Below the pieces are notes generated by a model. That model worked only from the letters and a program-made list of their open reading frames with translations, was not told the origin of the DNA and made no database searches. Both the position numbers and the translations under genes were made by a program. A DNA stretch of 64,000 nucleotides from a phage: sequence record PZ019084.1, one strand, 5' to 3'. Each line of letters begins with the position of its first letter. Position 1 is the stretch's first letter. Shown here one piece after another: positions 31,697 through 32,996 of the stretch.

Positions 31697-32535
31697 TAGA
31701 ATGCTCCTTGGAAAATATTATCACCACAAGTAGGTCTATTATACAAATACTCTATTCCACCAGGTTTAATATAGTTCCATGTCTGAAACGGATGTGTCTG
31801 ATATGGATGATATAGATGATTATAAGGATTAAATCCAGGAGTTCTCCAGGTAGTGTTCCAACGAAAAGAATCGTTTTTAACCATCTTCTCAATTAAATCT
31901 TTTATAGCTTTTTCACTATCAAAACTTTCTTTATTTTCCTTCGGCGAAAAAAGCTTATTTTCTACATCATTCCATGTATAAACTCGCTGCGCAGTTTTTG
32001 GAATATTGTCACGCTCTCCTCGCGCCATCCAATAAACAGGAACACTTAATATTTCACTCGCATGGTCGCAGTGGTGAGCAAGATCGTCAATATAACAAAT
32101 CACGTTATATTTCTCTTTTGCCTTTTTAAATAACTCTTCTTTTGAAGAATCATGACCACACATCATTACTTCTGAGAAGGCACCAGGAAAAAGAGCATTC
32201 AAATTAAATTGACGATTCAGCAGAGCGTCAATAGAATCACCCAATGCTGTAACAGCTACAAAATTATAATCTTCTTTTAATTTGTTAATTACACACAGGG
32301 CATCTTTATATGGAGACAAGTAACGAATAAAATCTGATCGATTGTATTTTTCAATTAGCTTGACACCGAGTTCTTCATCGCAATTAAAGAGTTTACCTGG
32401 AGAAATAAATTTCTCATCTTGGATCATTTTTAAAATATGTTCTAACGGAAGATTATATTTCTGAGCAAAATAAGGAAGGCCTGATTGCCAGCTTAAACAT
32501 ACTCCATCAATATCAGTTAAAATAGTAGGCTTCAT
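31696..32535 (-). CDS. HAD-superfamily phosphatase-like protein (279 aa), positional equivalent of T4 30.2
   Basis: N-terminal HAD motif I DIDGV; later D-D pair (YIDDLAHHCD); aromatic/Pro-rich C-terminal tail. Confidence 0.6.
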   Translation of the reverse strand: MKPTILTDIDGVCLSWQSGLPYFAQKYNLPLEHILKMIQDEKFISPGKLFNCDEELGVKLIEKYNRSDFIRYLSPYKDALCVINKLKEDYNFVAVTALGDSIDALLNRQFNLNALFPGAFSEVMMCGHDSSKEELFKKAKEKYNVICYIDDLAHHCDHASEILSVPVYWMARGERDNIPKTAQRVYTWNDVENKLFSPKENKESFDSEKAIKDLIEKMVKNDSFRWNTTWRTPGFNPYNHLYHPYQTHPFQTWNYIKPGGIEYLYNRPTCGDNIFQGAF

Positions 32536-32996
32536 AGAGAGTCTCTTAATAGATTTAACACATCAATAAATTCAGCTTCGGTTAGTATTGTATCATCTTT
32601 TGTTAGACCACTAGCCATGCTGTGCTTCAAAACTTTTCCTTTCGAGGCTTGTAATGCATCGCGAAAGCCCTTGTTTTGGAACGCTGCTTCAAAATATGCA
32701 TTTGTGTATAATTCTTTCCACGCCGGGGAATATCTTGAAAACGGAGTTCCAAGCCAGAAGAGGGTCCCACGGTCCTGAGCTCTAGCATAAGACCTTCCAG
32801 CTTGTTGGGCGGCAAGCCCGGATAACCCAAATATACGACGTTGCTGTTCAACATTTTTCACCTTACATCCTTGGAGGAATCCTTCGAGACCTCCGAATTG
32901 AATACCATCCATGACGAAAGGCCATTGGGCGAAATTACTTAATGCGCATGATGGCCATCTAAAATTGCTTCTTATCTCTAACTCAGACATTTTCAA
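32532..32996 (-). CDS. NADAR (YbiA/DUF1768)-like protein (154 aa), positional equivalent of T4 30.3
   Basis: Motif LSNFAQWPFVMDG resembles the YbiA/NADAR core FSNFAAWPIKVDG. Confidence 0.6.
   Translation of the reverse strand: MKMSELEIRSNFRWPSCALSNFAQWPFVMDGIQFGGLEGFLQGCKVKNVEQQRRIFGLSGLAAQQAGRSYARAQDRGTLFWLGTPFSRYSPAWKELYTNAYFEAAFQNKGFRDALQASKGKVLKHSMASGLTKDDTILTEAEFIDVLNLLRDSL

Follow-up and report, generated by a model that had tools for sequence, protein, structure and literature searches.

Gene 30.3 of a T4-like phage is an intact orthologue of T4 adfN and probably encodes an anti-DarT1 NADAR enzyme

Introduction

Can a protein of 152 residues from a T4-like phage remove ADP-ribose from DNA, and would it protect the phage against a DarT-type toxin? 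The question arises at a minus-strand open reading frame (ORF) in a 64,000-nucleotide stretch of phage DNA (sequence record PZ019084.1), referred to here as the window. An initial sequence-only reading recognized in its product a NADAR (YbiA-like) domain and proposed an enzyme that removes ADP-ribose and counters DarT-type toxins. NADARs have been described as guanine-ADP-ribose hydrolases and as antitoxins of DarT1, and a phage group carrying a histidine was noted in the same work (Schuller et al. 2023, Mol Cell, PMC11543638).

The proposal agrees with fold and profile tests and with published experiments on the T4 protein gp30.3/AdfN. With a probability of roughly 0.9, the window protein is a minimal NADAR-superfamily enzyme with a single domain, orthologous to the product of T4 30.3/adfN and directed against DarTG1. 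The function of this gene is already established and the finding is known; the present analysis shows that the window copy is an orthologue with the expected fold, that it retains the functional residues and the full length, and that it sits in the conserved gene order.

Identity and genomic context of gene 30.3

The window contains a minus-strand ORF at 32532..32996 with a TTG start and a predicted length of 154 aa, which is the frame originally reported. This ORF is real, and a minor correction concerns its start: the first ATG lies at 32990 and yields 152 aa, the start used in the T4 annotation and in the published residue numbering. The protein is identical to T4 gp30.3 (NP_049816) at 149 of 152 positions (98%). 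The three substitutions are V82T, I104F and I125M, and Met125 is the consensus residue in a family alignment of 59 homologues sharing 35–88% identity.

The surrounding DNA (32400..33100) has matches in 674 phage records, with identity of up to 98.4%, and the source is a T4-like phage (Tequatrovirus). Gene order follows that of T4, with 30.4, 30.3, 30.2, 30.1 (DUF3045) and DNA ligase (gene 30) in succession; the ATG of 30.3 overlaps the stop of the upstream 30.4, and its own stop overlaps the start of 30.2 (Table 1). A scan for promoters and terminators returned sites no more numerous than in shuffled sequence. From what is known of T4, early expression of 30.3 together with its neighbours is probable.

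Homologues of gp30.3 were found by tblastn in 1511 of 50,697 phage records. Most belong to T4-like phages of Escherichia, Klebsiella, Shigella, Aeromonas, Acinetobacter and Vibrio, and the outliers include Caulobacter phage CcrColossus and a Rhizobium phage. None of the 50,697 records encodes a protein identical to the window gp30.3, the best tblastn match reaching 99.3%. Gene 30.3 is without a functional name in all 15 of the closest phage records listed.

Table 1. Features of the 30.3/adfN region and of the alt genes in the window
Feature	Coordinates	Strand	Description
Gene 30.3/adfN CDS	32532..32990	-	152 aa plus stop; probable phage-type NADAR DNA ADP-ribosylglycohydrolase
N-terminal NADAR core motif LSNFAQWPFVMDG, residues 17-29	32904..32942	-	Aligns to YbiA 29-41 FSNFAAWPIKVDG
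Glu36 codon GAA	32883..32885	-	Ribose-contacting catalytic residue; invariant in the family alignment; aligns with YbiA E48
Lys43 codon AAG	32862..32864	-	Phosphate-contacting residue; at least 90% conserved in the family alignment; aligns with YbiA K55
His123 codon CAC	32622..32624	-	Last beta-strand; invariant in the family alignment; phage-NADAR signature
C-terminal helix, residues 138-152	32535..32579	-	Model helix 138-151; needed for full activity; missing in the RB69 allele
Gene 30.4	32983..33189	-	68 aa; phrog_2042, PHROG label 'function unknown'; stop overlaps 30.3 start; T4 order
Gene 30.2	31696..32535	-	279 aa; start overlaps 30.3 stop by 4 nt; 97% identical to T4 gp30.2
Internal ORF 30.3'	32627..32854	-	Inside 30.3; Pfam DUF2883, phrog_14037
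Nearer alt orthologue	27653..29732, main ORF 27945..29732	-	66% identical to T4 Alt; 2.8-4.6 kb from 30.3, downstream
Second Alt paralogue	25592..27649	-	Full-length, 685 aa; 41% identical to T4 Alt; 4.9-6.9 kb from 30.3, downstream

Family membership and fold

The window protein scores 232.8 bits (cut-off 36) with the Pfam family PF08010 (Phage_30_3), and the match spans profile positions 1–138 of 138. Pfam treats gp30.3 as a family separate from NADAR, and PHROGs labels it 'function unknown'. The Pfam NADAR model (PF08719) gave no match to the window protein at E <= 1. Among the relatives, 22 of 59 showed weak, sub-threshold matches to this model, the best at 32.3 bits, below the gathering cut-off of 35.1. 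A phmmer search of PDB sequences with the window protein returned nothing relevant.

Family-level comparisons gave a clearer relationship. The profile of the 59 homologues, run against the PDB with hmmsearch, found E. coli YbiA (2b3w) at E 0.005, and hhalign placed the same profile on YbiA with 93.9% probability (E 1.6e-7). Pairwise BLASTP of the window protein against E. coli YbiA yielded E = 9e-6 over 56 residues, so this match lies beyond chance. In the fold comparison, the structure model displayed the YbiA fold, formed by a helical core and two small flanking sheets. The homology to NADAR is visible only through a family profile, a profile–profile comparison or the fold.

The profile search suggested by the sequence-only reading thus had two outcomes, failing with the Pfam NADAR model and succeeding with the family profile and hhalign against YbiA. 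Because the Pfam model is silent on a true member, the rule that a failed profile search should overturn the NADAR assignment would have misfired in this case.

PADLOC returned no match for the window protein. One of its models, PDC-M42C, which represents a component of an uncharacterised candidate defence system, matched 42 of the 59 gp30.3 homologues weakly (best E 3.4e-5), and that candidate system may contain a NADAR-like protein.

Functional residues

The motif on which the NADAR assignment was originally based, LSNFAQWPFVMDG, is present at residues 17–29 and is identical at 9 of 13 positions to FSNFAAWPIKVDG of E. coli YbiA (residues 29–41). Residues A16, L17, S18, N19, F20 and F25 are invariant across the 59 homologues. 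Two conserved ADP-ribose-binding residues of NADARs, a glutamate for the distal ribose and a lysine for the diphosphate, are present as E36 and K43; their roles were defined by the structure of the Phytophthora nicotianae NADAR (8bau) and by mutagenesis. Both have been equated with ADP-ribose-contacting residues of that protein (PMC11825919); in our reading, E36 corresponds to 8bau E43 (distal ribose) and K43 to 8bau K50 (diphosphate). The equivalent lysine, K95, is essential in the NADAR of E. coli C7.

A residue in the last strand separates the NADAR branches, being Glu in YbiA, Asp in the DarT1-associated members (DarG1) and His in those of phages. The window protein has the phage histidine and lacks the glutamate of the YbiA subfamily: His123 falls opposite YbiA E125 once one further residue is added to the hhalign alignment, with KLVEHT in YbiA versus VLKHS. 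The term 'YbiA-like' is consequently apt for the superfamily and misleading for the type, His123 replacing the Glu. As in other phage NADARs, the protein comprises the core domain only, has no N-terminal extension and keeps its C-terminal helix intact within 152 aa. The 30.3 gene of RB69 carries a truncating insertion and ends after residue 137, whereas the window copy is full length.

Experimental evidence from the T4 protein

Resistance to DarTG1 was mapped to 30.3 by phage crosses, and the gene was renamed adfN, for anti-DarT factor NADAR (Johannesman et al., bioRxiv 2024/Nat Commun 2025, PMC11825919). T4 and T2 lacking adfN form no plaques on DarTG1 cells, and ectopic AdfN(T4) restores the plaquing of RB69 on such cells (PMC11825919). 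The purified T4 enzyme strips ADP-ribose from DarT1-modified DNA and its E36A variant does not; in vivo, E36A and K43A weaken T4 AdfN with partial activity kept, and cutting it at the RB69 position reduces activity (PMC11825919). No two-hybrid association between AdfN and the toxin was observed (PMC11825919). In vitro, T4 gp30.3 hydrolysed guanosine-ADP-ribose and did not act on thymidine-ADP-ribose (Toxins 2024, PMC11125620), and a 2026 paper reported that cytidine-ADP-ribose is not removed by the T4 NADAR. The 98% identity to this protein argues that the window allele very probably shares both the removal of guanine-linked ADP-ribose from DNA and the resistance to DarTG1.

Rescue from DarT toxicity by expression, put forward in the sequence-only reading as a check, has been published with a negative result, given that T4 gp30.3 did not rescue uninfected E. 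coli from DarT1 (Toxins 2024, PMC11125620). AdfN(T4) fully protects T-even phages but only weakly rescues non-T-even phages; this requirement for T-even infection is not due to DNA modification, as unmodified T4-GT7 behaves in the same way, and a T-even 'potentiating factor' for full activity has been postulated (PMC11825919). The lack of rescue in uninfected cells and the weak rescue of non-T-even phages render incomplete the picture in which the enzyme alone suffices.

The methods of the Toxins study give the T4 gp30.3 construct as residues 1–208, compared with 152 aa in the T4 gene (PMC11125620).

Alternative roles and the integrity of the allele

The alternative that survives best is compatible with the preferred reading. 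The main or an additional role of gp30.3 could be the removal of ADP-ribose from guanine in RNA, or from guanine modified by other guanine-directed transferases. An enzyme acting on the lesion would be indifferent to the toxin that caused it, a possibility raised by the authors of the AdfN work (PMC11825919), and the family extends over the 1511 phage records and many host genera. DarTG1 resistance is the sole reported phenotype, however, and the window holds nothing that bears on a broader eraser role, so we regard this extension as conceivable but unlikely.

Loss of function in the window copy, as in RB69, is very improbable. Frameshifted or shortened 30.3 products have been deposited for several T4-like phages, the RB69 gene is truncated, and in the window itself the neighbouring alt has a frame-breaking deletion. 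The window frame of 30.3 is nevertheless full length, with E36, K43, H123 and the terminal helix intact, and it differs from T4 by only three substitutions, all conservative and one of them to the family consensus.

The alt genes and the writer–eraser idea

The two Alt ADP-ribosyltransferase genes placed by the sequence-only reading about 3–5 kb from 30.3 are both present, at 2.8–4.6 kb and 4.9–6.9 kb. From this proximity it had been proposed that the phage encodes both a writer and a potential eraser of ADP-ribosylation. Both alt products match Pfam ADPrib_exo_Tox, a family of toxin-type ADP-ribosyltransferases, the second paralogue at E 7e-20. The T4 annotation describes Alt as an ADP-ribosyltransferase of RNA polymerase, that is, a protein modifier. 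Alt acts on arginine. The neighbourhood was accordingly described correctly, but the writer is not matched to the eraser, since Alt modifies protein and AdfN acts on guanine-linked ADP-ribose.

The stronger form of this idea, in which gp30.3 erases the marks of the phage's own Alt and its paralogue and thereby reverses or tunes the ADP-ribosylation of host proteins, is likewise highly improbable. In its favour, the two alt genes lie 2.8–6.9 kb from 30.3 on the same strand, and the 30.3–alt neighbourhood recurs in T4, RB69, Acj61 and a metagenomic T4-like contig. The reported NADAR activity, however, concerns nucleobase-linked ADP-ribose, and within this class the T4 enzyme acts on guanine and not on thymine or cytosine, whereas the alt products belong to the toxin-type family whose T4 member is annotated as a protein modifier. 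Moreover, in CcrColossus, Vibrio phage D486, Rhizobium phage Y68 and two lineages known from metagenomes, no alt gene was found within 4–6 kb of the 30.3 relative. As alt is absent near relatives outside the T4 synteny, its proximity reflects T4 collinearity and not a functional pair. The Alt writer–eraser pair was therefore rejected on substrate chemistry and on the missing linkage outside T4 synteny.

Least probable of all is a YbiA-type housekeeping N-glycosidase that would destroy reactive riboflavin-pathway intermediates in metabolite repair, given that the last-strand Glu of YbiA is His in the window protein and in all 59 relatives, that the phage group forms a cluster separate from YbiA, with DarG1 as its nearest neighbour (PMC11825919), and that the T4 protein has been shown by experiment to counter DarTG1 (PMC11825919).

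The alt region of the window has features of its own. Near position 27958, directly after the catalytic ExE motif, the nearer alt lacks 17 nt that are present in phage EC121 and T4. The deletion breaks the gene into ORFs of 595 and 101 aa; the frame ends in EAEVIGQS and a stop, and the last ~100 residues lie in another frame. Over the full query, the deletion was shared by 0 of 523 matching phage records, which points to a private mutation or an assembly error. The second Alt paralogue occupies the place of the alt.-1/alt.-2 remnants of T4, and the same two-gene layout is found in phage EC121.

The neighbour gp30.2 and other side loci

The T-even potentiating factor could be a translationally coupled neighbour of 30.3, with gp30.2 as the main candidate; we consider this improbable. 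Four elements of gp30.2 (TDIDG, VAVTAL, K132 and DDLA) are invariant in eight homologues and look like motifs I–IV of HAD phosphatases; beyond them extends a variable tail, about 80 aa long and rich in Pro, Tyr and Asn. Pfam and PDB searches with the single sequence and with an eight-member profile produced only one weak Pfam HAD match. No Pfam family covers gp30.2, which is hypothetical in the T4 annotation, although some depositors name its homologues 'HAD-like' or '5' nucleotidase'; its single-sequence AlphaFold model has a pLDDT of 36.

The distribution of gp30.2 parallels that of gp30.3, with 1453 phage records versus 1511. In all T4-like genomes examined, 30.2 lies just downstream of 30.3; in most of them the two genes adjoin, and in Acj61 and RB43 one to three small inserted ORFs intervene. 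No 30.2 homologue was detected within 4–6 kb of 30.3 in five non-syntenic lineages. Since conserved T4 gene order alone would generate the 30.2–30.3 pattern, the pattern lends weak support to gp30.2 as the factor. With one weak HAD match and no 30.2 in the five non-syntenic lineages, gp30.2 was not accepted as a functional partner and is kept as a lead.

The internal ORF 30.3' was evaluated as a second gene and rejected, as it shows no sign of purifying selection. Across seven Tevenvirinae, its amino-acid identity is 56–73%, compared with 81–95% when these bases are read in the 30.3 frame. In RB69 a stop codon interrupts it, and an equally long ORF appears in 9–16% of synonymous recodings of 30.3. 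The Pfam family DUF2883 may therefore rest on a non-coding frame. Products of 30.3 measuring 86–109 aa occur in the T4-like phages SV76, NR1, UGJNEcP4 and RPN226, and two of them are also hit by DUF2883, a sign that the reading may have shifted to the 30.3' frame. These short products may reflect repeated loss of adfN, as in RB69, or sequencing errors.

Genes of the NUDIX family lie 2.6–3 kb from a gp30.3 homologue in a 308-kb metagenomic phage contig (L014, 9115..9879) and in Acinetobacter phage Acj61 (L003, 790..1158). ADP-ribose, which the NADAR reaction releases, is broken down by some NUDIX enzymes. The proximity may be a coincidence.

Proposed mechanism and significance

In the mechanism proposed for AdfN, infection of a host carrying DarTG1 would lead DarT1 to place ADP-ribose on guanines of the phage DNA, and replication would be blocked. 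AdfN would bind the ADP-ribose through Glu36 at the distal ribose and Lys43 at the diphosphate, with His123 presumably located at the catalytic cleft in place of the Glu or Asp of other branches. Cleavage of the N-glycosidic bond between ribose and guanine would then release ADP-ribose and restore the DNA. Acting in this manner, AdfN would target the damage and not the toxin, and it may be regarded as an orphan antitoxin-like eraser.

This gene represents a case in which a function proven by experiment in 2024–2025 was predicted from the sequence alone. For annotation, the appropriate label is adfN (anti-DarT1 NADAR DNA ADP-ribosylglycohydrolase) and not 'hypothetical protein'. The intact allele predicts that the window phage, unlike RB69, is resistant to DarTG1.

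Comparison with known NADARs

The closest known system is T4 gp30.3/AdfN (PF08010), to which the window protein is 98% identical and with which it shares length, gene order, E36/K43/H123 and the C-terminal helix. DarG1, represented by the Geobacter lovleyi NADAR (8bat) and the NADAR of E. coli C7, differs in several respects. It is encoded beside a DarT toxin, whereas the window gene has 30.4 and 30.2 as neighbours and no adjacent DarT1 gene. It measures 219 aa with an N-terminal extension, compared with 152 aa and no extension, and it carries a catalytic Asp where the window protein has His. In uninfected cells, furthermore, DarG1 cannot be replaced by the T4 protein.

E. coli YbiA (2b3w) has Glu125 at the position of His123. 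It is a housekeeping N-glycosidase and not an anti-defence factor, its gene adjoins the dinG helicase gene, and ybiA forms part of a LexA-controlled operon (PMC11125620). The Phytophthora nicotianae NADAR (8bau) is a eukaryotic protein of 189 aa, 19% identical to the window protein, and it also carries Glu in place of the His. The AdfN proteins of phages Bas32 and Bas60 are, like gp30.3, stand-alone phage NADARs that reverse DarTG1 defence; according to their published description they belong to other branches of the superfamily and, unlike the T4 type, neutralise DarT1 without infection.
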